In this document: positions 794-20,077 of the stretch, piece after piece
How the letters are laid out: each line of letters starts with the position of its first letter
Numbering within the stretch: position 1 is the stretch's first letter
Source: Candidatus Binatia bacterium
Lineage (GTDB): Bacteria; Desulfobacterota; Binatia; Bin18
DNA: 64,000 nt
Direction: 5' to 3'
NCBI GenBank assembly: GCA_963666315.2
Contig: CAXXHG010000043.1
Location: 384,001 to 448,000, forward strand
Translations under genes and position numbers: made by a program
Notes under the pieces: model-generated
Database searches by the model: none
Told to the model about the DNA's origin: nothing
What the model saw: only the letters and a program-made list of their open reading frames with translations

Positions 794-1996
794 ATGCGAC
801 AGGTTGCCGTTGTCGGCGCGGGGATGACCCGCTTTGGAAAACATATGGATCGGAGCATGAAAGACTTGGCCCGAGAGGCAATTGAAAATGCCCTGCAGGC
901 GGCCGGAGTCGAAAAAAACGCCATTGAGGCGGCAGCCGTAGGAAACGCGGTTGCCGGCTTGATCACGGGACAAGAGTGCATCCGTGGTCAGGTCGTACTG
1001 CGCGAACTTGGGATAGGCGGCATTCCTGTGATCAACACCGAGAATGCGTGTGCGAGTTCCTCCACAGCCTTCCATCTCGCCTGGCTCTACGTGGCGTCTG
1101 GCATGTACGACATGGTCCTCGCCCTCGGCATGGAAAAGCTTTTTCATGCCGATAAGAAGCGCACCTTCCAGGCCATAGGTAGCGCAATCGACGTCGAGCA
1201 AGCCGAATCATTTGCCCGGGAGATGAGCGGCGAGCAGAGTGCTGGAGCTGGCAAGTCCCGTAGCGTGTTTATGGATTACTACGCCAACCTCGCTCGTCAG
1301 CATATGGATCGCTACGGTACCACCCAAGAACAATTCGCCCGCATTGCGGCCAAGAACCACACCAACGGCAGCCTCAACCCGCACGCCCAGTATCAAACCC
1401 GCCGCTCCGTAGAAGATGTCTTGTCGGCTCCACTGATCGCCGCGCCCCTGACGCGAATGATGTGTTCTCCGATTGGAGATGGAGCTGCGGCCGTACTCGT
1501 TACGACGGCAGAGAAAGCACGCCAGTTGACGACAAGGCTCGTCTTTGTCAAAGCCTCCAGCTTGGGTTCCAGCAAAGAACACGACCCGGACACCCCTGGC
1601 ATCGTCCCCTCGGTCGCGCACAAAGCGTACGAGCAAGCGGGTGTCGGTCCTCACGACCTGCATGTCGTTGAGGTCCACGACGCCACCGCGCCGGCTGAAC
1701 TACTCATCTACGAAGAGCTGAACCTGTGCCAGCCAGGTGACGGCGGCAAATTAATTGATGACGGAGTAACACAGATCGGCGGCCGTTGTCCTGTCAACCC
1801 GAGCGGCGGTCTGCTGGCCAAAGGACACCCCGTCGGAGCAACTGGAGTTGCCCAGATCTGCGAAATTTACTGGCAGCTTCGGGGTGAAGCCGCACAGCGT
1901 CAGGTTTCCGGAGCAAAAGTTGGACTCACCGAGAACGGGGGCGGTGTCCTAGGAGGGGAAAACGCAGCGGCGTCAATCCATGTTTTTACAGTCTAA
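794..1996 (+). CDS. Thiolase family protein (SCP-x / lipid-transfer type)
   Basis: VVGAGMTRFGK, ENACASSS catalytic Cys, EVHDAT, NPSGGLLAKGHPVGATG; AAGGAG RBS. Confidence 0.93.
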   Translation: MRQVAVVGAGMTRFGKHMDRSMKDLAREAIENALQAAGVEKNAIEAAAVGNAVAGLITGQECIRGQVVLRELGIGGIPVINTENACASSSTAFHLAWLYVASGMYDMVLALGMEKLFHADKKRTFQAIGSAIDVEQAESFAREMSGEQSAGAGKSRSVFMDYYANLARQHMDRYGTTQEQFARIAAKNHTNGSLNPHAQYQTRRSVEDVLSAPLIAAPLTRMMCSPIGDGAAAVLVTTAEKARQLTTRLVFVKASSLGSSKEHDPDTPGIVPSVAHKAYEQAGVGPHDLHVVEVHDATAPAELLIYEELNLCQPGDGGKLIDDGVTQIGGRCPVNPSGGLLAKGHPVGATGVAQICEIYWQLRGEAAQRQVSGAKVGLTENGGGVLGGENAAASIHVFTV

Positions 1997-2006
1997 TACA
2001 TACAAC

Positions 2007-2113
2007 GGAAAAAGGCCCGCAGGAAAAAGGAGGGGAAACCTGCGAGCCTTAAAACATCATCCGGCTGGGGAAATCCTGACGATGAGGACTTAAACGACTT
2101 GATCAAGCCCGCA
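2007..2113 (-). ncRNA. Candidate small regulatory RNA, three stem-loops, C/U-rich loops, intrinsic terminator
   Basis: Own promoter upstream; stems GGGCUUGA/UUAAGUCC, CAUCGUC-GG/CC-GAUGAUG, AAGGCUCGCAGG/CCUGCGGGCCUU followed by a U-run; loops AUUUCCCCAG and UUUCCCCUCCUUUUU. Confidence 0.62.
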
Positions 2114-2119
2114 AGCACA

Positions 2120-2148
2120 AATATACCAGAGATTGGGCTGTTTTACAA
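2120..2148 (-). promoter_or_regulatory. Sigma70-type promoter for the candidate sRNA
   Basis: Minus strand TTGTAA-17 nt-TATATT with TGn extended -10. Confidence 0.62.
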
Positions 2149-2233
2149 GATAAGTTGGTCTGAATTATTTTGTTTCAACTTATAAGTTCCATTTATTTTT
2201 CCATCGTTGCAGCGAGGAGCGCAGAATCCCTGC

Positions 2234-2261
2234 TTGCTCTCCATCTTCATCCGGCTATGAT
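2234..2261 (+). promoter_or_regulatory. Probable native tRNA-Arg promoter, now upstream of the 5'-half tRNA fragment
   Basis: TTGCTC-16 nt-TATGAT about 20 nt upstream of the tRNA 5' fragment. Confidence 0.55.
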
Positions 2262-2278
2262 GCGAAGACACTGTTCAG

Positions 2279-2321
2279 CGTGCCCTCGTAGCTCAGGAGG
2301 ATAGAGCACCGGATTCCTAAT
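2279..2321 (+). repeat. att direct repeat: 43 bp identical to 13735-13777 (5' half of tRNA-Arg CCT through the anticodon loop)
   Basis: CGTGCCCTCGTAGCTCAGGAGGATAGAGCACCGGATTCCTAAT occurs at both positions. Confidence 0.93.
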
Positions 2322-2339
2322 ACTATAACTGCCCGTTAC

Positions 2340-2427
2340 ATGGAGTGATATCAAGTAGTAAAGTAGCATACAGAGCGTACTCACCGTTGCGTTTCTGCCT
2401 TCCTGCTATCTCCTGATATCACTCCAT
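2340..2427. repeat. 14-bp perfect inverted repeat just inside the left att site
   Basis: ATGGAGTGATATCA (2340-2353) and TGATATCACTCCAT (2414-2427). Confidence 0.85.
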
Positions 2428-2448
2428 ATCTCCCGTTATACCATCTGT

Positions 2449-2468
2449 TTGGGCACCCCCTTGGGCAC
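2449..2468 (+). promoter_or_regulatory. Putative integrase arm-type sites (left end)
   Basis: TTGGGCAC x2 at 12-bp period, matching TTGGACAC/TTGGTCAC at 13663-13682. Confidence 0.65.
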
Positions 2469-2880
2469 AACTGTCTGCGCCAATAACGTGTGATTGAGGC
2501 GTGGCGGTACCTATTGACCTAAGGGGGTCAGGAAGTCCGGTCACGTCAAAAGCGGCATTGGCCTGGATTTGCCCATGGGTATGCCCTAACTGGGAGACGG
2601 TGCCGTCAACACGGCAGACCTGCACGCCACCCTAGGCCAGCTACATTCCTACGCTCAGCTAATTGCAGATCGTTGCGTAGTCAGACTTCATTGCGACGCG
2701 GAAGACCAGCCTCAGCAGAGCTTCTAAAAATCCGACCTGGAATTGGTTTGTGAACCCGACGTAGACAGTGAATCACGCAAGTGCACGCAGGGGGCTTTCC
2801 TCATGAACTGGTTTGTATTGCGAATCGATGCAGGACCTTGGTAAGGAAAACTTATGCAACGTCTCGTGTTCGTGCTGTAG

Positions 2881-3300
2881 GTGCCCCTGTTGGTACTCGT
2901 CGTGGGGTTCGCCCAAACAGGGACCTGGGAGCAGTTAGGCTCGAGCTTCGTTGCGGAAGGCTCCGGGGATTACCTGGGGCATTCTGTCGCAATCTCCTCC
3001 GACGGAAATCGTGTGGTTCTGGGAGGACAATACAACGACGGTGCAGGACACAACGCTGGCCATGTTCGAGTGTTCCAGTATGGCGGAACGAATTGGAGCC
3101 AACTTGGCGAAGATCTTGACGGCGAAGCGACAGAAGACCAATTCGGGTACGCAGTTGATCTGTCGTCAACATGGGGTCTCGATACTGGTCTTGCTGCTGG
3201 CGTTGTTCTCATTGGGTGCCGCGGCCGCGTGGGCTCAGTCGGCAGGCTGGACCCAAGTAGGAGACACTTTTGTCGAAGAAGCATGGACGGGTACCCAGCG
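2881..3300 (+). pseudogene. Fragments of secreted FG-GAP/integrin-alpha beta-propeller repeat proteins
   Basis: WEQLG...DYLGHSVAISSDGNRVVLGG...NAGHVRVFQY...WSQLGEDLDGEATEDQFGYAVDLS, then a second signal-peptide-like start ending WTQVG in another frame. Confidence 0.7.
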
Positions 3301-3479
3301 GTCTCATCCATCGAGACTGTTCTGATATATCGCTTTGATGAGTTATGGCGAAACGATATGGCCGCCTGAAGTCGTCAATCGGCGCGGCCACATTGTCTGC
3401 GTGTTTGTTTGGACGGCGCTTGGCATCGATGATGTTCCTCATACGGCTCAAACGTGGAGCGGTCCTGATCTTCCATGGG

Positions 3480-3761
3480 GCGACGCTGATTTACAATGAT
3501 GATATTGTGGAAACTGATCAGGATGTGCCGGTAACGATCCCAGAGGCAGACTTGCTTGCCAATGGTACGGATGTGCACGGAGATAGCCTGAATATTACTG
3601 CAATCGACAAAGCAGTGAAGGGGAGAATCCGTATCAGCGGAAACGGGATCATAAACTTCATGACTGGTCGGCGTTTCTCCGGTGACGGATCCTTTCAATA
3701 CACGATTGATGCTGGCAACGGTGGAACCGATACGGCCACCGTGACGATGTCGAGTCCTTAA
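3480..3761 (+). pseudogene. Cadherin-like/bacterial Ig-like adhesin repeat fragment
   Basis: DDIVETDQDVPVTIPEADLLANGTDVHGDSLNI...FSGDGSFQYTIDAGNGGTDTATVT. Confidence 0.7.
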
Positions 3762-3779
3762 AAAGAAGGAGGAGGTATT

Positions 3780-5039
3780 ATGCGGCCAACGTCATGGGCG
3801 GGAAAAGTAGCCGGCCTTTTTAGCGCTATTTTCGCTGGGATGTGTCTGGCTGCAGCGTTTAGCTATGCGGGAGATAAAGCAGGTATTTCTCAGCCTTTAG
3901 CTGGCTTTTCCGGTCTGCAGCTCGGCTTGTACGAGGCCGGGCTAGAGGAGTTCGAGCGACACTTTCGCGCTCGGGATGGGCTTGGGCCACAATTTAATGA
4001 AAACCCGTGCCATTCTTGCCAAGATGAAGGAGGTATTTCTCAACCTTTAGCTGGCCTTTCCACTCAGCAGCTCGGCTTGTACGAGGCCGGGCTAGAGGAG
4101 TTTGAGCGACGCTTTCGCCGTCAGGATGGGCTTGGGCCGCAATTTAATGGCAACTCGTGCCATTTCTGCCATCGTCAGCCGTCCGTTGGCGGCTCAGGTC
4201 CTCGCTATCGGAGTAATTTCAACTTTGCGCATGGTAGCGATCTGCTCGAACTCGAAGGAGGACCGCTGCTCCAAGTGAAAGCCATCCGTGGGGAACCAAG
4301 AGAACTTATTCCAGCCGCAGCAACAAATTTCTCGCTGCGCAAAGTTCCTCCGCTCCACGGCCTGGGCTTGGCGGAGGCCATTCCAGACAGTCAAATAGAA
4401 GCCGTCGCCACCCAAAACGGTGGAAAAAGTGTCCTCACTGAAGACGGCCATATGCAGCGTTTTGGTTCACAAAATCAGGTCGTTAGCCTCAAACAGTTTG
4501 TCATGGGTGGATTTGCTCGGGAACTTGGCATTACGGAAGACGAAAATCCTGAGATCTCTCAATCTATAGAGAACGTTCTCAACTTTATCCGCTTTCTGGC
4601 TCCACCTCTACGCGGAGAAATAAACGAAGACGTTCTGCGTGGCGAAGAAGTCTTCACACAGATTGGATGCGCTGACTGCCACACGCCTTCATTTACGACT
4701 GCGCCAGGCCCGTTCACCACGGCTAGCGGTGAGGTCGTCGATGTCACGGCTATGCAAAATAAGACGATCATGCCGTATTCAGACTTCCTCCTCCACGACT
4801 TGGGTCTAGGGCTCGACGACGGCGTCCCGTTGCACGGGGGATCTAGCGCAGAATATCGAACCATACCGTTGTGGGGACTCCGCTTCCGCAAAAACAAGCT
4901 GATGCATGATGCCCGAGCAGCCAATTTCCGTCAGATGCTGCTCTTTCATGGAGGTGAGGCAGCGGTAGCGAGAGATGAAGCGATGAGTCTTCCGCGTGAA
5001 GACAGCCAGGCTTTAGAGAAATTTTTAAAGTCGCTCTGA
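3780..5039 (+). CDS. Secreted di-haem oxidoreductase (DHOR / thiol oxidoreductase-like) with an internal 50-aa duplication
   Basis: Signal peptide, DGLGPQFN..SCHFCH, PPLHGLGLAEAIPD, GCADCH, PYSDFLLHDLG, RTIPLWGL, MHDARA; strong GGAGG RBS. Confidence 0.88.
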   Translation: MRPTSWAGKVAGLFSAIFAGMCLAAAFSYAGDKAGISQPLAGFSGLQLGLYEAGLEEFERHFRARDGLGPQFNENPCHSCQDEGGISQPLAGLSTQQLGLYEAGLEEFERRFRRQDGLGPQFNGNSCHFCHRQPSVGGSGPRYRSNFNFAHGSDLLELEGGPLLQVKAIRGEPRELIPAAATNFSLRKVPPLHGLGLAEAIPDSQIEAVATQNGGKSVLTEDGHMQRFGSQNQVVSLKQFVMGGFARELGITEDENPEISQSIENVLNFIRFLAPPLRGEINEDVLRGEEVFTQIGCADCHTPSFTTAPGPFTTASGEVVDVTAMQNKTIMPYSDFLLHDLGLGLDDGVPLHGGSSAEYRTIPLWGLRFRKNKLMHDARAANFRQMLLFHGGEAAVARDEAMSLPREDSQALEKFLKSL

Positions 5040-5245
5040 ATACTAGCTAGCCCATCGGCAACCTGTATGAGGGTCATATCGACGAACCTTAGACCAAAAT
5101 TCGATATGGTCATTTGACCCTCCCTGGATATTTGCTCATCACGAAGACGTTTTTTCTTAATGATCGGGTGCACATGAGGACTACGAAAGGTTTTTCCTCT
5201 TGCCGATGTGTACCCATTGTCATTCAACCATTCTGCTATCTGTTT
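5036..5245 (-). pseudogene. Serine-recombinase recombinase-domain-like fragment
   Basis: IAEWLNDNGYTSARGKTF..V..I pattern; no start codon context. Confidence 0.45.
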
Positions 5246-5399
5246 AAATGTCCAACCCTTGCCTCGAAAGTCTGATACCGGATCGTAAAGAAATTGTTGG
5301 TAATTGGAGTAGAGCGCGACCCATAGAGTTGATGTGCGCAGATTTACGTCGAAGGTTAAAATTGAGCCGAGTCATAATAGTCGATTCACCGCTGTCCTG

Positions 5400-5480
5400 G
5401 ATCGCTTTCTTCCGCACTGGCAGCAGCGGCGGGACGAGCTGAATCGTTTGCCAGTCCGGCATGAGGAGTGGGGATATTAA
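5400..5480 (+). pseudogene. C-terminal remnant of a YgjP/DUF45-like metallopeptidase (commonly next to type I RM loci)
   Basis: DRFLPHWQQRRDELNRLPVRHEEWGY* read directly from sequence. Confidence 0.5.
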
Positions 5481-5677
5481 GTGCGAGCGGCTGGCCATGG
5501 CGTGACGGATAGCGGGAGCGAGTGGCGTTATTGAAACGCGGGGACGGTTCTGACGAAAAGACAGGGTCTCATAACGTCGTGATAGGCCCACACCATAATT
5601 ATTCGAGCTGGGGCGGTTTTGTTGCCGGCGATGAGAACGATGATTCAGAACCTGCAGGAAATTCTTGAGTAGAAGTC

Positions 5678-6403
5678 TTAGTCCCGCCCTGCCTCAATAA
5701 TCTTCTCAGCTAATCCAATCGGATTGGTAAAAATCGCCTCATGGCTGCCCGGCATTTGGACCAGCCGATACAGACCCAAGCGATTTGACATACGTGGATG
5801 CCAGCCCCACTCGCCCGGTGGCAAAGCGATATCTTCGGTACAGTTCAGAAAACTCTTGGGGATGTCTGATGCGTAGAACTTCTTCATGTCGAGCTTGTCG
5901 CGATAGGGCTGGTACGGCTCAGGCGAGAGACGTTCGTAGGCGGATTTGGCGAGTGCTAAATCCGCATCATTAATAAAAGCGTCGCGCCAAATCGGGAACG
6001 GCAATACGATCGTATAATCGTTCGACTCTTTTACTAGCTCATCAAAAAGCTCGTGATAGTGAGATGGAACTTCATCCATCAGACTATTGCCATCCTCACA
6101 CACAAACGCATTCCAAAAGACGAGACGCTTGATCCGTTCCGGGATGGCAGGCGCTACCTGAGAGATAAGGGTGCCACCAAAGCTGTGGCCGACAAGGACA
6201 ATATCTCTCAAGTCTTCTTTAACAATGAAATCAATAATCGACTGCGTACACTGGGCGTGATTGACATTTTTGTCCACGCCTTTGCCATGCCCGGCGATGG
6301 TCGGACCAAAAGCGGTATGGCCTTTCCCTTCCAAATGCGCGATCACCGGCTCCCAGGCCGACCCATCGTGCCATGCACCGTGGACCAAGACAAATAGAGA
6401 CAT
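5678..6403 (-). CDS. Alpha/beta hydrolase (esterase, salicylate-esterase-like)
   Basis: FVLVHGAWH, GHSFGG nucleophile motif, PGSHEA catalytic His; AGGAGG RBS. Confidence 0.92.
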   Translation of the reverse strand: MSLFVLVHGAWHDGSAWEPVIAHLEGKGHTAFGPTIAGHGKGVDKNVNHAQCTQSIIDFIVKEDLRDIVLVGHSFGGTLISQVAPAIPERIKRLVFWNAFVCEDGNSLMDEVPSHYHELFDELVKESNDYTIVLPFPIWRDAFINDADLALAKSAYERLSPEPYQPYRDKLDMKKFYASDIPKSFLNCTEDIALPPGEWGWHPRMSNRLGLYRLVQMPGSHEAIFTNPIGLAEKIIEAGRD

Positions 6404-6586
6404 AGCTATCCTCCTGGGTGCTTTCGTATGACATGCCGATGGGAACTGTCAATGCATCGCCCCCGGCTTCTCCCACCCCAATCAGGATGAGAACAGTGTA
6501 CTGCAGTTCGGTACGTCAGTATCCGGAGGATCACTCAATGTTGCCTCCGGCATAACTTCTTCGGTTAGCGGCGGCAGTGGGAGAAA

Positions 6587-6836
6587 ATGCAGGAAGAAGC
6601 CTCGGCTGTTGACTTCAGCCCTGGTTCCCTCGACCTGTTGGCTGGCTCGGTCGGCAACGACGATGACCGGGCGATACTCGACGAAGAACAATTGCAGGCT
6701 GAAGAGGACGCGCAGTTCGAGGCTGCTTCTGCTGCCACGATGGGACCGATTGAGGATTTGTCGGCCAAGCAATTGTTTGAGCGCGAGCAGCAACTGCTCC
6801 AGGAAATGACAGATATTGCGGAGCCGCCCGCGAGGC
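6587..6836 (+). pseudogene. Internal fragment resembling the acidic linker of SNF2 helicases (DISARM DrmD-like)
   Basis: DDDRAILDEEQLQAEEDAQFEAASAA...REQQLLQEMTDIAE; recalled similarity only, no helicase motifs present. Confidence 0.35.
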
Positions 6837-7571
6837 CTAATCCAGTCCCTGCAGATTCTCAAGAATATCCGCCGGCTCTAGGCGAATGGCATAATTCGCG
6901 TCCACATGAGCAAGCTTGATAGTCCGATCTGTACCAATGACGTAGGTCCCGGGTATCGGGAGCTGCCAGACGGCGCCGCCATTATGATCGGGTAGCTTAA
7001 TTCCTAATGCCGCGTACGCTGTTTGAAGCTCATCAACGAGCCGAAATGCGAGTCCGAATTGCTTGGCCACAGTGTTGCCCACGTCGCTGAGGACCTCAAA
7101 CTTGAGGCCAGTCCTCTCTGCAATGGTGAGCGAGTTATCTGGTGTTTGCGGAGAAATGGCAACCAACGAGGCACCCTTAGCTAGTATCTCCGGCAGATGT
7201 TTTTGGTAAGCCTGCAACTGCGGGTTACAGTACGGTCACCACGCGCCTCTATAAAAGGCGACCACGACGAGCCCTGTGACCAAGAGGTCGGAAAGCGAAA
7301 CGGACTCTTCGCGGACATTGGGTAAGCTGAAATCGGGCGTCGTGTCTCCCACCTTCAAGGCTGTTTTTGCGATGCCGGACTTTACCTGGTCTTCTGTTGT
7401 TCGCACTACAACACCAAGAACTTCTTTGGGTAACTTGGGCAGCATTTCTTTCTGAAATGCTGCAATTTGTTGTTTGAGCTCGCTATCGGGCCCAGTCCGC
7501 GGGACCTTTTTGGTGCAGAACTCAATCATATCCGTAACAATCCCCGCGCCGGGTTCCATTTGACCGCTCAT
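6837..7571 (-). CDS. Peroxiredoxin-like AhpC/TSA-family selenoprotein (in-frame UGA at 7236-7238, W-U-P-Y-C)
   Basis: ORFs 7236-7571 and 6837-7217 share a frame; read-through gives VVAFYRGAW-U-PYCNPQLQAYQ, where homologues have WCPYC; selA and tRNA-Sec are in this window. Confidence 0.85.
7206..7228 (-). promoter_or_regulatory. Candidate bacterial SECIS hairpin
   Basis: mRNA GUAACCCGC-AGUU-GCAGGCUUAC; apical loop begins 16 nt after UGA with G at loop position 2. Confidence 0.55.
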
Positions 7572-7795
7572 AGAAATACACCTTTCCGAAAAGAATGACT
7601 GCAGCTCCGCGAGCTTTGCCGTTTGCGTAGGCGGGTCAGGTTGCTTGCTCCCCGGGCTCTTTTTTACCGATGGGGCTGTCGGTTTCGGAGGAGTTGTGCG
7701 CGATACGGAAGGGACAAAGGCGGACGATGGGCGCGGTTCAGGAACATCACCACTCTCTCCTGGTAGGTTAGTTGGCTGAGGCGGCGTTTCATCTG

Positions 7796-8596
7796 TTACA
7801 TCAGAGGACTTTCCTTTGATTCGGCTACGGTTGACCGCTTGGAAGGAGGCGGTGGGTCAGGCAGGAGTGGGACTGGCTCCTTTGTCTCCCGCTTCGCTGT
7901 CTCTTTATGCTGGACGGGGAGTTGTCCTTCTCCTTCCTTCGGATTGTCTAATTCAGAAGAAGCGTCTGAGGGCGGATCGGGTGGTATAGCGGACAAATCC
8001 TTCGGAATGCCAACAAAGGAAGAATCCTGCTTTGTAAGTCGTTGCCTCTGCACTCCTCCCTCATGAACTGGTGTCCATCCAACGTAGCCTACTACGGCAA
8101 GGGCGAGGAGTCCGGCAGCGCACATGCGTGCATAACGCCAACGGCTCTGAGGTGCTTCAAAGAGCTGTGTCGGAAGTACGATTTTATTGCTCTGGGGCTT
8201 TTTGGTTACATCCGCTTCGAGAAATTGCTCCGATGGAAGGGATGCTGCTGTTAACTTTGTCTCTTCGTCCTGTACGGTTTCTGGGGTAGGGGGTTCTTGC
8301 GAAGGCTCTCGCGATGCTTCCTGATCTTGCTGCGCTCTTTCAATAGGGTCTGTCGTCCCGACAGTGTCGAGTCCTCCCTCGGTGCTGAAGTCGTCATCAA
8401 GCTCTTCGAGCACATTCTTTGCCCTTCCCATTTCTACAGAGAGATCAAAGAGCTTCTGACGGATTTCGACGTGGTGAGAATCAAGAGCGAGTACTGCCCG
8501 GTACTCAGCCTCAGCCTCTTCCAGTCTACCCTCCTGCCTGAGACGCTCACCGTTCTGAATGTGATTAATTAGGGGATCACTCTCCTGGTTTGTCAT
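7796..8596 (-). CDS. TPR + single transmembrane + Pro-rich protein (probably continues by frameshift into the selenoprotein frame)
   Basis: N-terminal TPR (GRLEEAEAEYRAVLALDSHH), TM helix AAGLLALAVVGYVGW, Pro/Glu-rich tail. Confidence 0.65.
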   Translation of the reverse strand: MTNQESDPLINHIQNGERLRQEGRLEEAEAEYRAVLALDSHHVEIRQKLFDLSVEMGRAKNVLEELDDDFSTEGGLDTVGTTDPIERAQQDQEASREPSQEPPTPETVQDEETKLTAASLPSEQFLEADVTKKPQSNKIVLPTQLFEAPQSRWRYARMCAAGLLALAVVGYVGWTPVHEGGVQRQRLTKQDSSFVGIPKDLSAIPPDPPSDASSELDNPKEGEGQLPVQHKETAKRETKEPVPLLPDPPPPSKRSTVAESKESPLM

Positions 8597-8864
8597 GGTG
8601 TTTTTGCTGAGTATTCCACGAAGTTATCTAAGGAAATGGCTCTTCATTCGCCCCGCGACATAATCCCGTCTCCCCGTATTCCATTTCCTATTTTTGCGTG
8701 TATCGGTATCGCAGAAACTGGGGCCGTGCAAGAGAAACGCCCTGCCAGACTTCCATAATCGATTGTAGGTAAGCCCCAGGCTAGATATCGACCCGGTTCC
8801 GGGTCCATTTCATCTGACCCCAGCACTGTTTTGCACCCTTCACATCACCGACCTGTCGAACAAA

Positions 8865-9270
8865 GTGGCTTTGATGAACGGGACCGAAGTCGATGTGGTG
8901 CCCCTACCCTCCCTATACCGGCGGCTTGGTCCGGACGATGTGCGCCCTTTGTATCCGTTTGCACGTGATTTTGTTCTTCAGCTCCGTCTTGAAAAGGAGC
9001 TGCACGAGGACTGTCGCGTAGAGACCACGTTCCGATGGATACCGTTGACAGGCGGCAGCTTTAATGTCAGTCCGATGACCGCAAGAGCGCGTTACTCGAT
9101 CCTGCGCATACGCGGAACGCTGTTCGATGTTTTTACGATTCTTCTGCTGTTGACTGGAAGCTAGGATTAATCGACAAGGTCTTGTTCTGCCCTAATCGCG
9201 ACACACTATTTGTGAGACGAGGCAAGCAGAAGTACTGTACCCCTCGCTGCACACAGCACGCGGCAGGCCC
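8865..9270 (+). pseudogene. Degraded mobile-element gene ending in a CGNR-like zinc-finger remnant
   Basis: LFCPN...LFVRRGKQKYCTPRC in a broken frame after ORF 8865-9164. Confidence 0.4.
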
Positions 9271-9525
9271 ACGCGATTTCCAGGCCGCAGCCTGGGGGGG
9301 AATGGAGAGGACAACCCGATGTCCCGTAACCCCCAGAGAATCAAGGCTTTTCGCCTATTTTCGGCGGGTTACGAAACTCATAGTGTGGGTATTGGTAAAC
9401 AGCAATTGTTCACCGTCGAACGCGCAGAAGTCAGTGAGCGTTCCACCGTTGTCGATGTTAATGAGTCTTCCCACGGATTGTCTTCCTATTGAGAGACGAA
9501 ATGTACGCCTTGGCTACAAGGCGCG

Positions 9526-10335
9526 TTATGCGCTTTCAATGTCGTCGTAATCTCCATGGCGCCCTTTGCCACTGCTGAACCGCGCGGCGCCAGCGAGGCC
9601 TTCGGTCTCGACGATGTCGATGCTATTTCCCCATTCGGTACGCAGTGCATCGGCGACCGGCAAGCCATGCTGCCGATAGACCGAGCGACGGTCTGCTCGC
9701 ACGCATTCCTGCGGAAAGCGTGCAATCTCGTGGGCGAGTGCCTCGGCCGACTCTCGCGAGCTACCGTCAGCGACCACCTGTTCGCAGGCGCCGATGCGCA
9801 GACACTCGTCAGATGGGACTTTCCGTCCGGTCATGATGATTTCGAGCGCACGTCCCTGGCCGACCAGTCGGGGCAGGCGCACGGTACCGCCGTCGAGCAG
9901 GGGAACCCCCCAGCGTCGACAGTAGACACCAAAATAGGCGCTCTGTTCCATCACGCGGATATCGCACCACAACGCCAGCTCGAAGCCGCCCGCGACGGCC
10001 GGGCCCGCCACCGCAGCAATCACCGGTTTCGACAAGTCAAGCCGTGTCGGTCCTATGGCACCGCGTGGCGGCTTACTTCCATCCGCCGGAAAGTCGAGTT
10101 CACGGAGCGGTTTTGCGCTCCCTTTGAGCGCGCTCGCATACTTCAGATCCCATCCGGCGCAGAACGCACCGCCTTCCCCCCAGAGAACGGCCACGCTGGA
10201 ATCCGGATCAGCATCGAAACGCTCGAATGCCTCCACCAATGCATCCGCACTGTCAGGGTCCATTGCGTTGCGGGCTTCGAAGCGGCTGTGAATTACTGTC
10301 GTCACTGCACCATTTCTTTCAATGCGTACACTCAT
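9526..10335 (-). CDS. Enoyl-CoA hydratase/crotonase family protein
   Basis: FCAGWDLK, KPVIAAVAGPAVAGGFELALWCD, GVPLLDGGTVRLPRLVG; AAGGAG RBS before ATG at 10335. Confidence 0.93.
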   Translation of the reverse strand: MSVRIERNGAVTTVIHSRFEARNAMDPDSADALVEAFERFDADPDSSVAVLWGEGGAFCAGWDLKYASALKGSAKPLRELDFPADGSKPPRGAIGPTRLDLSKPVIAAVAGPAVAGGFELALWCDIRVMEQSAYFGVYCRRWGVPLLDGGTVRLPRLVGQGRALEIIMTGRKVPSDECLRIGACEQVVADGSSRESAEALAHEIARFPQECVRADRRSVYRQHGLPVADALRTEWGNSIDIVETEGLAGAARFSSGKGRHGDYDDIESA

Positions 10336-10466
10336 CTCGATCTCCTTAATCGTTCGGGCTGGCCAGAAGAGGCACGGGGGGTGCTTGTCGAATTGGGTAT
10401 CCAATACTCCAAGGAGGCTTTTGTTCAGGCCATTGGGAACAATGACTCTACCAAGCGTGTCTTATG

Positions 10467-11558
10467 CTACACAAGATATTTCGCTACTGCGTGCTCATCC
10501 CATGCGAGGCCTGTCCCCGGTGTGGAGGTGGGCAGAATCTTGCCAGCTTCAATAACAGTCGGTTCTTGGAGAAAGGGATCCGCCCAGTCCATATACTCCA
10601 GCCAATGCCGCGTTGGCGTTACTGCGAGCAAGTGAGCGCTGATTTCTGGGTAGAGATGTGACGAGATAGGAATGCCGCTGGGCCCAGCCAAGGCAATCGC
10701 TCGCAGCCAGCCTGAGACGCCGCCGATTTTATTTGCATCCGGCATGAGGAAGTCCCCAGCCCCGGCAGCGATTGCCTTGGCCATGTCATGCGGTCCCCAA
10801 AAGTTCTCTCCAAGCTGAATGGGCGTTTGAGTGGATTGGCGAATGAGGGCATAGCCTGCGTAATCGTCCGCGCGGGTGGGCTCTTCGATCCAACACAGCC
10901 CCTCACCGTCAAGTGCTTGGGCCCTTTGCATGGCCTCAGGAACGGACAAAGACTGATTGTAGTCCGACATCAAGGCGATGTTATCGGGAATCGCGTTGCG
11001 GACTGCGCGCACCACCTCAACATCTGTTTTTACATCCGGATAGCCCAGTCTGACTTTGATGGCTTTGAAGCCTGGCTCAACAAGCGCTCTCGCTTCATCG
11101 CCGGCTCGTTCGGCACCGATAATTCCCAAACCCGTACTGTTGTAAGCCGGAATCGGTTGGGCTTTTCCTCCAAGCAGCTGAACCAAAGGAAGTCCAGCTG
11201 CTTTTGCGCATGCATCCCAGGCCGCGCTATCGATACCGGCGGCTGCCATGGCAGTAAAACCCTGTGGGCCGAGCAAACGAAAGGCTCGTTGTAATTTTTC
11301 TTCTAGGGCGAGCGGGGCAACTACTTCACCGTTGATGAGGTCGCCCAGATTGTGCAGCAGCTTGACGAGAGGTTCAAGGACAAACGCGGCATAGCAGAAG
11401 ATATAGCCACAGCCGGTAATGCCTTCCTCCGTCTCAAGATCGACCAGTACAAGCGGGACCCGAGCGACTGATCCACCCCCCGTTTGTATTGGTCTCGTCA
11501 TGGGCAGGCTGAGTGCACGGGCACGTAAAGAACGGACTGTGAGGACATGCCTGGGCAT
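10467..11558 (-). CDS. Mandelate racemase / enolase superfamily enzyme
   Basis: KAIKVRLG, DYNQ, WIEEP, QLGEN, PDANKIGG, SSHL motifs. Confidence 0.9.
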   Translation of the reverse strand: MPRHVLTVRSLRARALSLPMTRPIQTGGGSVARVPLVLVDLETEEGITGCGYIFCYAAFVLEPLVKLLHNLGDLINGEVVAPLALEEKLQRAFRLLGPQGFTAMAAAGIDSAAWDACAKAAGLPLVQLLGGKAQPIPAYNSTGLGIIGAERAGDEARALVEPGFKAIKVRLGYPDVKTDVEVVRAVRNAIPDNIALMSDYNQSLSVPEAMQRAQALDGEGLCWIEEPTRADDYAGYALIRQSTQTPIQLGENFWGPHDMAKAIAAGAGDFLMPDANKIGGVSGWLRAIALAGPSGIPISSHLYPEISAHLLAVTPTRHWLEYMDWADPFLQEPTVIEAGKILPTSTPGTGLAWDEHAVAKYLV

Positions 11559-11810
11559 GGATTCCCCTCTCTCCCAGTGAGCAGGTGAATGCAGAGTATA
11601 GCCAATGCGCTGAGAGGGTCAAGCAGGAAGGCGAGAAGTTGCTTACTATCCAGGAAGTTGTTCCCTCGGTTATTGGGAGGGTAGCAGACAGTCCTCCGGA
11701 CCGTACCAAGGTTACTGCTGTGTCCAGTTTATTTTCTTGCATCATATGACCTCCCCGTTCTGACGTGTCATAGGACACATACTACTCTCAACAGTTATAC
11801 CCTTTACTAG

Positions 11811-11839
11811 TTGACAGTTCAAGAGTGTCACGGTACGCT
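11811..11839 (+). promoter_or_regulatory. Sigma70 promoter for xre-int
   Basis: TTGACA-17 nt-TACGCT; TGAC..GTCA palindromes nearby (TGACGTGTCA 11761-11770). Confidence 0.6.
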
Positions 11840-11862
11840 TCTCATGTGTGGAGGTCATCATA

Positions 11863-12609
11863 GTGAGACGCAGAGTATCACGGCCACTTGGAGGAATACT
11901 TGGCGCTGCGATCCGCGAAGCACGAGAGACAAGACGGTTGCGTCAAGATGACCTTGCAGCGGTTGCACGAGAGGTTGGACTTCCTTGGACACGGGTGACT
12001 GTGGCAGCCATCGAAATTGGTCGCCGCAGGCTCACTCTCGATGAATTTCTGCTACTACCTGCTGTTCTGAATTTCACCGAGCTGGCCGAGCTTTTTCCAA
12101 TGGACTCGTGGGTTGGCCTTACGAAGGAAACAAGCGTACACAGCACAGAGCTGAAATACATTCTCTCGGGGAAAGCCGGGAAAGGTCATCCCGGAAATTA
12201 TGACACGCCAGCGCAGCGTAAGCTCCAAAATGAATTCCCCAGACAACAGATAAGGGACATCGTTCAAGGGACAGTCATCCCAAAGGTTGTGGAAGTGATA
12301 CGACGCGTGTGGCCAGAGGTAGAAAGTGGCGGCAATGAGTTCCTTATTCAATGTGAGATGGAAGCCAAGAGGGATGCCGAGCAGAAGGCCGCACGAAGAT
12401 TGCACGTGTCGCCCTTTGAGGTCGCCCTGGCGGCGCAGAAGTTGTGGGGGCGTTCGTTGACGGCGGAACGAGACCGGCAGGTCGCGTTTCGAGAGACCGA
12501 CGCGGCGGCAACAGGCAGACGCCGTGCCATCAGGGGCCATGTGACGAGGTTACTTGTTGAAGAGATCAGGCCGCTGGTAACAGGTGCATGTGAGGCTGAC
12601 GAGGGGTAA
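11863..12609 (+). CDS. XRE-family HTH regulator of the integrative element
   Basis: IREARETRRLRQDDLA...WTRVTVAAIEIGRRRLTLDE; GGAGGT RBS before GTG 11863. Confidence 0.8.
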   Translation: MRRRVSRPLGGILGAAIREARETRRLRQDDLAAVAREVGLPWTRVTVAAIEIGRRRLTLDEFLLLPAVLNFTELAELFPMDSWVGLTKETSVHSTELKYILSGKAGKGHPGNYDTPAQRKLQNEFPRQQIRDIVQGTVIPKVVEVIRRVWPEVESGGNEFLIQCEMEAKRDAEQKAARRLHVSPFEVALAAQKLWGRSLTAERDRQVAFRETDAAATGRRRAIRGHVTRLLVEEIRPLVTGACEADEG

Positions 12610-12640
12610 ACAGGGAATCACAAGGCGCAGAGGACTAAAT

Positions 12641-13725
12641 ATGCCTAAATACAGATATGGCGCAGTCAGAGTGTATCGGCGTGGCAAGACTTGGTGGATC
12701 GATTATTACCATGATGGCAATCGTGTCCGCGAATCAGCGGACACGTGTGACAAAAGTGAGGCACGGCGTTTGTTGCAAGAGCGGATGGGGCAAATAGCCG
12801 AGGGACGCTATGGGGGTCCACGAGCGGATCGGGTAACTCTGGTGGACTTGGCAAGAGGTCTTCTCGACGATTACAAGACGAATGGAAGAAAGACTCTGAG
12901 TGACGTGAAAATCCGTATCAATCTGAATTTGTTTCCATTTTTTGGAAAGCGACGGCGAGCCCAATCACTTACATCCACCGATGTGCGTTCCTACATTTCA
13001 GAAAGACAGGTAACCGGGAGTTAGCCGCCCTGAAACGAATGTATAATCTCGCCCTTCAAGAGGCGATAATTAACAGGAAACCCTATATCCCTAGTCTTGA
13101 CGAAAACACGGCGAGAAAAGGCTTTTTCGAGAGGCATGAATTTCTGTCGATGTTGTCGAAGCTGCCCGAGTATCTACGACCATCCTTCATGTTCGCGTAT
13201 CAGTTCGGCTGGAGGATAAGAAGTGAGGTATTCCCACTACGCTGGGAGCAAATTGATCTGCATACCTGCACGGTCCGTTTGGAGGTAGGGATCACGAAAA
13301 GCAAAGATGGAAGACTTATATACCTGACAAACGAACTTCGTGCCGTGTTTAGTGCCTATTGGGAACAACATCTCAGGTCTTCCCCGGGGTGCCCCTGGGT
13401 TTTTCACCGTAGTGGTAAACGTATATTCACGTGCTACAAGGCATGGCACAGGGCTTGTCGGGAAGCCGGGCTGATTGATAGGATACCACACGATTTTAGG
13501 CGGACCGCTGTGAGGAATATGGTAAGGAGCGGAATCCCTGAGAGAGTGGCTATTCAAGTGGCCGGACACAAAACGCGGTCTGTGTCTGATCGGTATCATA
13601 TCGTATCGGATATCGACCTCCAGGAAGCAGCAACACGAATGGAATCGTGTAATTCACCAGTCTTGGACACAAATTTGGTCACAGGAACCCCGTTCGCGTT
13701 AGGGGAAACCAACGTAAGTCACTAA
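12641..13725 (+). pseudogene. Tyrosine integrase, split by a small deletion/frameshift near 13010
   Basis: N-terminal arm-binding region WWIDYYHDG; NRELAALKRM resumes in another frame; catalytic R (GWR), K, HDFRR, GHK and Y present. Confidence 0.88.
13663..13682 (+). promoter_or_regulatory. Putative integrase arm-type sites (right end)
   Basis: TTGGACAC and TTGGTCAC at 12-bp period. Confidence 0.65.
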
Positions 13726-13737
13726 TTTCATTAACGT

Positions 13738-13811
13738 GCCCTCGTAGCTCAGGAGGATAGAGCACCGGATTCCTAATCCGGGGGTCGTGCGTTCGAATCG
13801 CGCCGGGGGCA
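13738..13811 (+). tRNA. tRNA-Arg (anticodon CCT), CCA not encoded
   Basis: Cloverleaf: GCCCTCG/CGGGGGC acceptor, GCTC/GAGC D-stem, CCGGA-TTCCTAA-TCCGG anticodon arm, GTTCGAAT T-loop. Confidence 0.96.
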
Positions 13812-13924
13812 TGTCCTTTCTTTTCAATATCTTATGCAATTTCATAGGTTTTCCAGCTATCTAGAGCAACCCAGTTTGTTGTCCAGTTTGTCTCACCAGT
13901 CCGGTTTATCCAGCTATAACTATG

Positions 13925-19981: not shown

Positions 19982-20077
19982 TGGCGGAGAAGAGATGGAG
20001 TCGAACCATCCGCGCAACGTTACGCCACGCAACTCGGTTTTGAAGACCGGTACAGCCACCGGGCCATATCCTTCTCC
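19982..20077 (-). tRNA. selC: tRNA-Sec (anticodon TCA)
   Basis: 8-bp acceptor GGAGAAGG/TCTTCTCC, 6-bp D-stem, CTTCAAA loop, long variable arm, 5-bp T-stem, GCCA end; next to selA. Confidence 0.95.

Follow-up and report, generated by a model that had tools for sequence, protein, structure and literature searches.

We analyzed a 64,000-nucleotide (nt) stretch of DNA from a Candidatus Binatia bacterium (positions 384,001 to 448,000 of contig CAXXHG010000043.1, assembly GCA_963666315.2; hereafter the window), which is part of a 5.0-Mb genome assembly of 47 contigs that is 92% complete. On the minus strand, at positions 2148..2009, a σ70-type promoter with an extended -10 element is followed by ~104 nt arranged in three hairpins, the last of which forms an intrinsic terminator. 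Downstream of this candidate small RNA (sRNA) gene, and convergent with it, lies a thiolase gene encoding 400 amino acids (aa) (794-1996, plus strand, Thiolase_N/Thiolase_C_1), and the hairpin is located 15 nt beyond the thiolase stop codon. Upstream, and divergent, is the 5' part of a tRNA-Arg(CCU) gene on the plus strand. No co-directional gene lies upstream of the candidate, which is therefore not a 3' untranslated region (UTR) or a leader. The locus shows the generic features of an sRNA gene, namely its own predicted promoter, its own predicted Rho-independent terminator, non-coding sequence and conservation, and it is very probably a real and as yet uncatalogued small regulatory RNA gene of the Binatia.

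The promoter was located by a consensus scan and consists of TTGTAA (2148-2143), a 17-nt spacer and TATATT (2125-2120), with a TG at 2128-2127 that completes the extended -10 element TGgTATATT (2120..2128); in this element (T)GcTATAnT is kept in orthologues and paralogues. The site scored 9/12. Together with one other it makes two promoter-like sites in 1500-3000, whereas shuffled sequence contains 0.7 on average. Three further blocks precede or overlap it on the same strand. Box C, CTTATC, runs straight into the -35 hexamer TTGTAA (2143..2154 together); as CTTAT(C/G/A)TTG this block is found in the large majority of 66 upstream regions, all of them distinct. Box B, TAATTCAG, lies at about -50 (2160..2167); it is near-invariant in paralogues 1 and 2 and recognizable as AATTCA in other genera. 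Box A, which reads CTTATAAG in the window copy and is of the CTAATAAT type in the paralogues (2179..2186), belongs to a column block kept across paralogues and genera in the same 66 regions; in the window copy it lies at about -60 to -67 relative to the predicted start, and in the anchored family alignment at about -72.

From the promoter and the fold we infer a transcript of ~104 nt (2009..2113, minus strand), with the start placed at 2113/2112, 7-8 nt past the -10 element, and the 3' end placed within the U run. Hairpin 1 (2086..2110) is found in the window copy's own fold and is variable among relatives. Hairpin 2 (2055..2084) carries UUUCCCC in its loop (2074-2065), the family core of which is UCCCC, and the terminator hairpin (2012..2050) has a 12-bp stem and a 15-nt loop (2038-2024) that reads UUUCCCCUCCUUUUU. 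It is followed by five U (2009..2013), and a T run is kept in all aligned copies. Folding of 2120..2003 gave a minimum free energy of -39.4 kcal/mol, compared with -29.1 +/- 3.6 for shuffled sequences (z = -2.9; 3/200 shuffles were equal or better). These results bear out the preliminary description of this DNA, made from the sequence alone, which had listed the promoter with its extended -10, three consecutive stems of which the last precedes a U run, and both loop sequences. A consensus terminator scan did not call the main terminator hairpin because its 15-nt loop exceeds the 3-8 nt that the scanner allows. On the plus strand the hairpin is followed by UUAAAAC and the U run is present on the minus strand only; the terminator is therefore oriented for the minus strand. 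Just past the -10 element, 2113-2119 of the window copy read UGUGCUU and are not C-rich, and most orthologues are C-rich in the 7-12 nt at this place (UCCCCUC, CCUCCUC); depending on the start site, that stretch may serve as a third C-rich site within the RNA, or may be a C-rich discriminator that is not transcribed.

The description had also held that the transcription unit contains no open reading frame (ORF). A mechanical 41-codon GTG frame (1993..2118, minus strand) does overlap the gene, so that this statement stands only in the sense that the frame is not kept in relatives. Among 20 orthologues the longest sense frame is ~33 codons in 11 and 37 in the window copy, all of which read through the terminator, and <=30 codons in the other eight, seven of which have frames of just 2-18 codons. 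Apart from two residual short ATG frames, sense frames begin with TTG or GTG. A small protein as the gene product was accordingly rejected, on the shortening of the frames, their TTG/GTG starts and their run through the terminator.

Conservation of the gene within one family of Candidatus Binatia

A blastn search with 2000-2160 found matches in 24/24 genomes of the same genus and in none of 16 genomes of other genera, and 20 orthologues could be aligned from the upstream boxes through the terminator. A covariance model of the RNA, R1, matched all 41 genomes sampled from the GTDB family of the window (10/10 genera, 1-4 matches per genome, E <= 1e-4) and, in a sample of 151 genomes of the class, 18/18 members of that family at 55 bits or more (>=55 bits). 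The 132 genomes of the class that lie outside the GTDB family yielded no convincing copy; seven had weak R1 matches of 24-32 bits, and the three of these shown per residue (L108-L110) were set aside as ordinary terminators with loops of 3-5 nt and no C-rich loops, in two of them the loops of both hairpins were short. When one genome from each of 185,579 species was scanned for the exact pattern, 43 stretches were returned, all from Candidatus Binatia metagenome-assembled genomes (MAGs) or from MAGs with generic or evidently wrong labels, and several of these have a third stem type, CACCGC.../...GCGGUG. Every genome that was sampled from this one GTDB family of Candidatus Binatia carries the gene family.

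Within its own genome R1 found two strong copies, at 92.8 and 84.5 bits, together with two weak matches. The second gene (paralogue 2) is at C7:61676-61755, behind mgtE. Many genomes likewise gave a second blastn match confined to the terminator part, and the 20 of these that were fetched proved to be this paralogue, which has the same promoter boxes, the same terminator loop and a different hairpin 2 with the loop UCUCCCC. In the same genus, paralogue 1 and the thiolase gene converge at 19/19 loci and paralogue 2 follows a co-directional mgtE at 7/7; at eight loci from other genera neither neighbour is present. A third paralogue occurs at G003:C11:26720-26799 and G021:C1:2355357-2355438 (63-67 bits), and at G017:C1:4484899-4484943 as a 45-nt blastn match only. 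It lies 3-5 kb from the orthologue of a VOC/glyoxalase-family gene of 126 aa, a place at which the window's own genome has no copy.

Genes of different paralogues and genera share a common promoter plan. When the 66 upstream regions were anchored on the box just ahead of the -35, they aligned with CTAAT near -72, (T)AATTCA(G) near -52, CTTAT(C/G/A)TTG leading into the -35, and (T)GcTATAnT at the -10, and paralogues in different contexts have CTAAT, TAATTCAG, CTTATCTTG and TGcTATAnT in common. Because these boxes are shared by paralogues and genera that have other neighbours, and because a tRNA adjoins the sRNA at only one of ten relatives' loci scanned, the boxes belong to the RNA gene and not to the genes around it. 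The same observations led us to drop the idea that the upstream block is a divergent promoter of tRNA-Arg. In the window's own genome, only the two sRNA genes have box B and box C ahead of a C-rich-loop RNA; the other four strict matches are without such a context. The -35 of paralogue 2 is weak (TTCCCA), which together with the phased upstream boxes suggests that an activator may act at this promoter.

We assessed covariation in an alignment of hairpin 2 and the terminator that comprised 59 sequences, 58 of them distinct, with the structure specified by hand. Paired cells made up 97.2% of the total, a share that falls to 90.9 +/- 0.4% in shuffles and to 29.9-47.8% when the partners are slid, and changes on both sides were found in 13 of 22 pairs, compared with 6.6 +/- 1.3 in shuffles. 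Among the distinct sequences, 7/10 pairs of hairpin 2 and 6/12 of the terminator stem showed compensatory changes. The loops, by contrast with the stems, are near-constant: hairpin 2 has UCCCC and the terminator UUUCCCCUCCUUU; in most orthologues they read UCCUCCCCGU, and in the window copy AUUUCCCCAG and UUUCCCCUCCUUUUU. Even in 20 lower-scoring copies (35-67 bits) with very different stems, such as AGCCCCCAGG/CCUGGGGGCU, the terminator loop keeps CCUCC in 16 and the loop of hairpin 2 keeps UCCCC in 15. Stems that drift and compensate around fixed loops are the pattern expected if the loops are the functional part of the molecule. Hairpin 1 does not appear in the consensus structure that RNAalifold gave for the 20 orthologues. 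The preliminary description had named a terminator as all that would be left if there were no transcript and stems 1 and 2 or the promoter were not conserved in relatives; the promoter, hairpin 2, the terminator and both C-rich loops are kept family-wide, and conservation was not seen for stem 1.

Pairing potential of the C-rich loops

The 16S rRNA of this genome ends in ...GGAUCACCUCCUUUCU (...CACCUCCUUUCU), and the commonest hexamers upstream of start codons are AAGGAG and AGGAGG. Loop 3, the terminator loop, has CCUCCUUU in common with the 16S 3' tail, extended by CC. Across ~5,300 roughly called ORFs, loop-3 duplexes of <= -18 kcal/mol were found at 366 start regions compared with 102 internal control sites. 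The complementarity of loop 3 to Shine-Dalgarno (SD)-type sites that had been claimed for it is therefore borne out. A search for the Hfq family gave no match in the window's own genome or in any of 31 genomes of the GTDB family (31/31), in a search whose controls matched in 5/14.

We think it reasonably probable that 2148..2009 is a stand-alone sRNA gene whose product acts through C-rich loops that occlude G-rich ribosome-binding sites (RBSs) without Hfq. On this account an sRNA of ~104 nt would be transcribed from its own σ70-type promoter with upstream boxes and would end at its own terminator, and the exposed loops with UCCCC (hairpin 2) and UUUCCCCUCCUUU (terminator) would be its functional parts. 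Loop 3 resembles the anti-SD tail of 16S rRNA, and the loops would pair with G-rich RBSs of the AAGGAGGGG type on mRNAs, where pairing would occlude the RBS, reduce translation and possibly lower the stability of the mRNA. The action would be Hfq-independent, as in sX13, LhrC, RsaE/RoxS and cuckoo RNAs; because no hfq was found in 31/31 family genomes, any pairing with mRNAs is probably independent of that protein. A lineage-specific, trans-acting sRNA with anti-SD loops is what had been proposed at the outset, and the proposal is supported by the family-wide conservation of promoter, stems and loops and by the lack of a matching Rfam family; pairing with mRNAs, and repression as the direction of regulation, we infer from the loops. 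Since the sRNA is found in every sampled genome of the family, has a distinctive conserved promoter and occurs in a lineage that gave no hfq match, it probably serves its GTDB family as a core post-transcriptional regulator.

Several points weigh against RBS occlusion by such an sRNA. Loop 2 of the window copy shows no preference for start regions (949, compared with 1040 control sites, in the same ~5,300 ORFs), and ~98 ORFs have a perfect loop-3 complement of at least 9 nt at the RBS. A 148-aa VOC gene that had been considered as a target was rejected, as its G run is kept in only 2/24 relatives. The invariance of the loops in the alignment is partly built in, because its sequences were gathered by blastn, pattern, regex and model queries that all contain the loop. 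The transcription start is a prediction, and the C-rich stretch that follows the -10 element in most orthologues may lie upstream of +1. Finally, nine runs were listed, of which one is recorded as RNA, and four runs were compared with 1700-2330; the RNA library provided a single 167-nt contig, covering 1909-2073 with four differences, that is unstranded, holds no information on ends or level, and possibly stems from DNA or from read-through, so that it speaks neither for nor against a discrete sRNA. This contig (X1) spans the 3' end of the thiolase gene, the terminator hairpin and half of hairpin 2, and two further contigs (X2 and X3) represent the tRNA fragment or the thiolase gene, not the sRNA.

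A contig that runs from the 3' end of the thiolase gene through the hairpin is what might be seen if the locus held only a shared or bidirectional terminator and spacer, serving thiolase here and mgtE at the paralogue, with a chance promoter and no independent RNA. The closeness of the hairpin to the thiolase stop codon and the position of paralogue 2 downstream of a co-directional mgtE fit this account too. It is nevertheless very improbable: the U run is on the minus strand only, with UUAAAAC on the plus strand; the promoter boxes are kept between paralogues with unrelated neighbours and across 10 genera; hairpin 2 and both loops are constrained beyond the needs of a terminator; and ordinary terminators in other Binatia families, in three examples, have loops of 3-5 nt. 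We regard as equally improbable that the RNA is a cis antisense RNA directed at the 3' end, or at read-through, of the convergent thiolase mRNA. Because no U tract follows the hairpin on the plus strand, thiolase transcripts could enter the sRNA gene; their overlap is compatible with the contig 1909-2073, and the convergence of the two genes is kept at all 19 same-genus loci. Other neighbours, however, accompany the same loops and promoter at paralogue 2 and in the other genera of the family, which points to a function independent of the neighbour.

The likeness of loop 3 to the 16S tail could also be read in terms of the tail itself. A real RNA that does not act on mRNAs might use its loops to mimic the 16S 3' end and so titrate a protein or RNA that recognizes C-rich or anti-SD sequence, as a decoy or sponge. 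The shared CCUCCUUU speaks for such a role, as does the complementarity of loop 3 to nearly every strong SD, which leaves it without target specificity; moreover, each molecule has two to three C-rich sites and each genome 1-4 copies, as in protein-sequestering RNAs. CsrB and RsmZ sequester protein in this way through a different motif. The analysis identified no candidate binding protein, however, and the characterized RNAs with such loops cited below (sX13, LhrC, RsaE/RoxS) pair, in the portions of the papers cited, with G-rich sites on mRNAs, so that we consider a decoy unlikely. A slightly less doubtful, although still unlikely, idea is that the RNA is dedicated to mimicking the 16S 3' tail, acting as a global, promoter-controlled competitor for strong SD sites of the AAGGAGGGG type in a lineage in which no hfq was found, or titrating a factor that recognizes the anti-SD tail. 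Were the mimic real, the translation of a whole class of mRNAs would be re-programmed, and not that of a few targets; with either mimicry or titration the RNA would be a core regulator of the whole Binatia family and an unusually clear case of independent origin of the cuckoo/sX13 design in an uncultured phylum.

With RBS occlusion as the favoured mode of action, the mRNAs concerned can be described only in general terms, since loop 3 complements the generic SD and no specific regulon can be named. The 20 longest matches of loop 3 to leaders include luciferase-like monooxygenases, VOC/glyoxalase proteins, an AmoC/PmoC-like protein, a thiolase paralogue and others, among them mixed oxidoreductase and hydrolase types, and these 20 show no clear functional theme. 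The VOC/glyoxalase-family gene of 126 aa has GGAGGGG at the RBS in 14/22 genus orthologues, the best conserved RBS of those tested, which makes it a candidate target, albeit as a weak lead.

The motif of loop 3 and its complement also occur elsewhere. The thiolase coding region at 1951-1960 (plus strand), 36 nt ahead of the stop codon, holds AGGAGGGGAA, the exact complement of the loop-3 core. At G000:C20:12456-12490 an inverted repeat has the arms AGGAGGGGAA and TTCCCCTCCT, that is, the loop-3 complement and the loop-3 motif with a few bases between them; it could be a naturally 'self-paired' form of the motif, or else a terminator. R1 also gave a weak match (23.8 bits; L088, ~1470-1545, minus strand; G000:C43:368624-368712) ~15 kb before the start of the window, where two adjacent hairpins without a U run lie immediately upstream of a CobW/HypB/UreG-family GTPase gene. 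The first hairpin has the loop GGUUCCCCUCCUUUCUG, and the second has the loop AUUCUCCCC on the stem GGGAAGGGAGG/CCUCCCUUCCC; these hairpins may be a cis-acting relative with the same loop theme, or a product of chance.

Relation to known sRNAs with C-rich loops

At gathering thresholds Rfam recognized only two tRNAs in the window, and at E <= 10 there were only three chance-level matches in 1800-3000. The preliminary description had noted that a match to a known family would remove the novelty of the RNA; neither the window copy nor its relatives reached the gathering score of any family. Below threshold, the best resemblance is to ar14 (RF02344): in permissive searches 10/20 same-genus orthologues (nine in one search, and L007 at 30.2 bits in another) matched it over their full length, at 26.7-38.5 bits compared with a gathering score of 58.8, in an alignment that pairs three modules and the C-rich loops. 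One orthologue, L011, when searched singly, matched ar14 (38.5 bits, E 6.8e-06), sX13 (27.1), ErsA (24.6), mmgR (22.9) and anti-hemB (22.5). The window copy matched none of these five families and had no ar14 match at E <= 10, and at E <= 1 none of 15 loci of other paralogues and genera matched ar14. sX13 (RF02232) scored 22.7-31.9 bits in five relatives' loci, compared with a gathering score of 50, and 24.9-31.9 bits in 3/15 loci of the other paralogues and genera; the window copy did not match it. RsaE/RoxS (RF01820) was unmatched in the window region at E <= 10 and in the 20 and 15 relatives' loci at E <= 1-10.

The ar14 scores raise the question of a distant but true homologue of the alphaproteobacterial ar14/cuckoo (CcsR) family. 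Cuckoo RNAs, as described in the excerpts available, consist of 2-4 adjacent hairpins in several copies per genome, with many compensatory changes in the stems and the anti-SD loop motif CCUCCUCCC as their only conserved sequence (PMC4615179; PMC8034643). The Binatia RNA resembles ar14 and the cuckoo RNAs (CcsR1-4, SmelC397; Alphaproteobacteria), insofar as those excerpts cover them, in its adjacent hairpins, its variable and compensating stems, its C/U-rich anti-SD loops and its multiple copies, and homology would account both for this modular plan (PMC4615179) and for the sub-threshold, full-length matches to RF02344, of which that of L011 has the best E value. Against it, every score is below 58.8, the window copy is without a match, and the loci of the other paralogues and genera have none to ar14, three of them leaning to sX13. 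The loops differ as well, with UCCCC and UUUCCCCUCCUUU in the Binatia RNA, in which the CCUCCUCCC reported for cuckoo loops is not present as such. Cuckoo RNAs arise by processing of UTRs, whereas the Binatia RNA has its own promoter, and the phyla are different. Cuckoo RSs0680a is reported, in the portion of the paper cited, to be bound by Hfq (PMC4615179), whereas hfq was not found in genomes of the Binatia family. The CcsR subgroup is further set apart by its genomic linkage to a gene for DUF1127 (PF06568, CcaF1-type), to which there was no match in the 92%-complete genome of the window, where the neighbours are the thiolase gene and tRNA-Arg. Taken together, we judge common descent with the cuckoo family improbable.

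The other RNAs of this kind share the design of the Binatia RNA and little else. sX13 is a single-copy, gammaproteobacterial RNA. In Xanthomonadaceae it is described, in the excerpt cited, as having three stable stem-loops with CCCC loops and as repressing, independently of Hfq, mRNAs with G-rich motifs at the RBS (PMC3771888). CCCC is likewise exposed in loops 2 and 3 of the Binatia RNA and kept in 15-16 of the 20 divergent copies, although no sequence relation is detectable beyond the loops and terminator, and the longest motif of the Binatia RNA is in its terminator loop. LhrC1-5 of Listeria monocytogenes are multicopy RNAs in which redundant CU-rich UCCC sites occupy a hairpin loop as well as the loop of the terminator, and both loops pair with the G-rich SD of the target, according to the part of the paper cited (PMC4132741). 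The Binatia RNA has UCCCC in the loop of hairpin 2, CCCCUCC in the terminator loop and 1-4 copies per genome, a resemblance of design only: the Firmicute LhrC has a third site in a single-stranded linker and is induced by LisRK, and no sequence or Rfam similarity was found. RsaE/RoxS of the Bacillales, in the excerpt cited, use several C-rich regions to pair with G-rich SDs and inhibit translation, are transcriptionally controlled by a two-component system and are conserved over a whole family or order (PMC4409812). C-rich regions and conservation over a whole taxonomic family are, to that extent, shared with the Binatia RNA, unlike the motif context, which is CCCCUUUGUU in RoxS. Because the design appears to be the same and yet no threshold of Rfam membership was reached, we treat the Binatia RNA as an independent family of the same kind as cuckoo, sX13, LhrC and RsaE/RoxS.

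The Binatia are an uncultured and environmentally widespread group, and a full-text literature search found no paper that combines Binatota with 'small RNA' or Binatia with 'sRNA'. The RNA is an independent, well-supported addition to the sRNAs with C-rich anti-SD loops (cuckoo, sX13, LhrC, RsaE). It represents a new family of a known kind with a probably conventional mechanism, and reveals no new one; its covariance model can be used for annotating Binatia genomes.

The tRNA-Arg island and other features of the window

The partial tRNA-Arg upstream of the sRNA gene belongs to a direct repeat. Positions 2279-2321 are identical over 43 nt to 13734-13776, which lie in the region of a complete tRNA-Arg gene (within 13734-13812), and the repeat is made up of 3 nt of leader and the first 40 nt of tRNA-Arg(CCU), up to and including the anticodon loop. 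Between its two copies lies an insertion of 11.4 kb (2322-13733). A gene of the Phage_integrase family, encoding a tyrosine recombinase of 228 aa (13039-13725), ends 11 nt before the intact tRNA and is preceded by an ORF of 146 aa (12584-13024); the further cargo includes a di-haem oxidoreductase, cadherin-like and FG-GAP proteins, an MR/MLE-type enzyme of the enolase superfamily, an alpha/beta hydrolase and a helix-turn-helix (HTH) protein. G024 (locus L005), the closest relative with an uninterrupted tRNA, has an empty site without the 11.4-kb stretch, and G009 and G020 have related DNA beyond the repeat. Because the recombinase gene is next to the intact tRNA and the stretch is absent from G024, the stretch is an integrated island, and it is separate from the sRNA finding. 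Its arrangement is unusual in that the island supplies the 5' half of the tRNA, parting the gene from its old upstream region.

At six relatives' loci (L008, L012, L014, L017, L020 and L022), truncated matches to the Rfam family 5_ureB_sRNA (RF02514) exceed the gathering score (48-54 bits) at ~1.4 kb from the sRNA. They most likely reflect the likeness of the family to the ureB coding sequence itself, and they show that urease genes, and not tRNA-Arg, adjoin the sRNA in these six relatives. Elsewhere in the window, a tRNA-Sec gene is located at 19982-20077 on the minus strand (66.8 bits to RF01852; anticodon TCA by ARAGORN), and the organism presumably uses selenocysteine.

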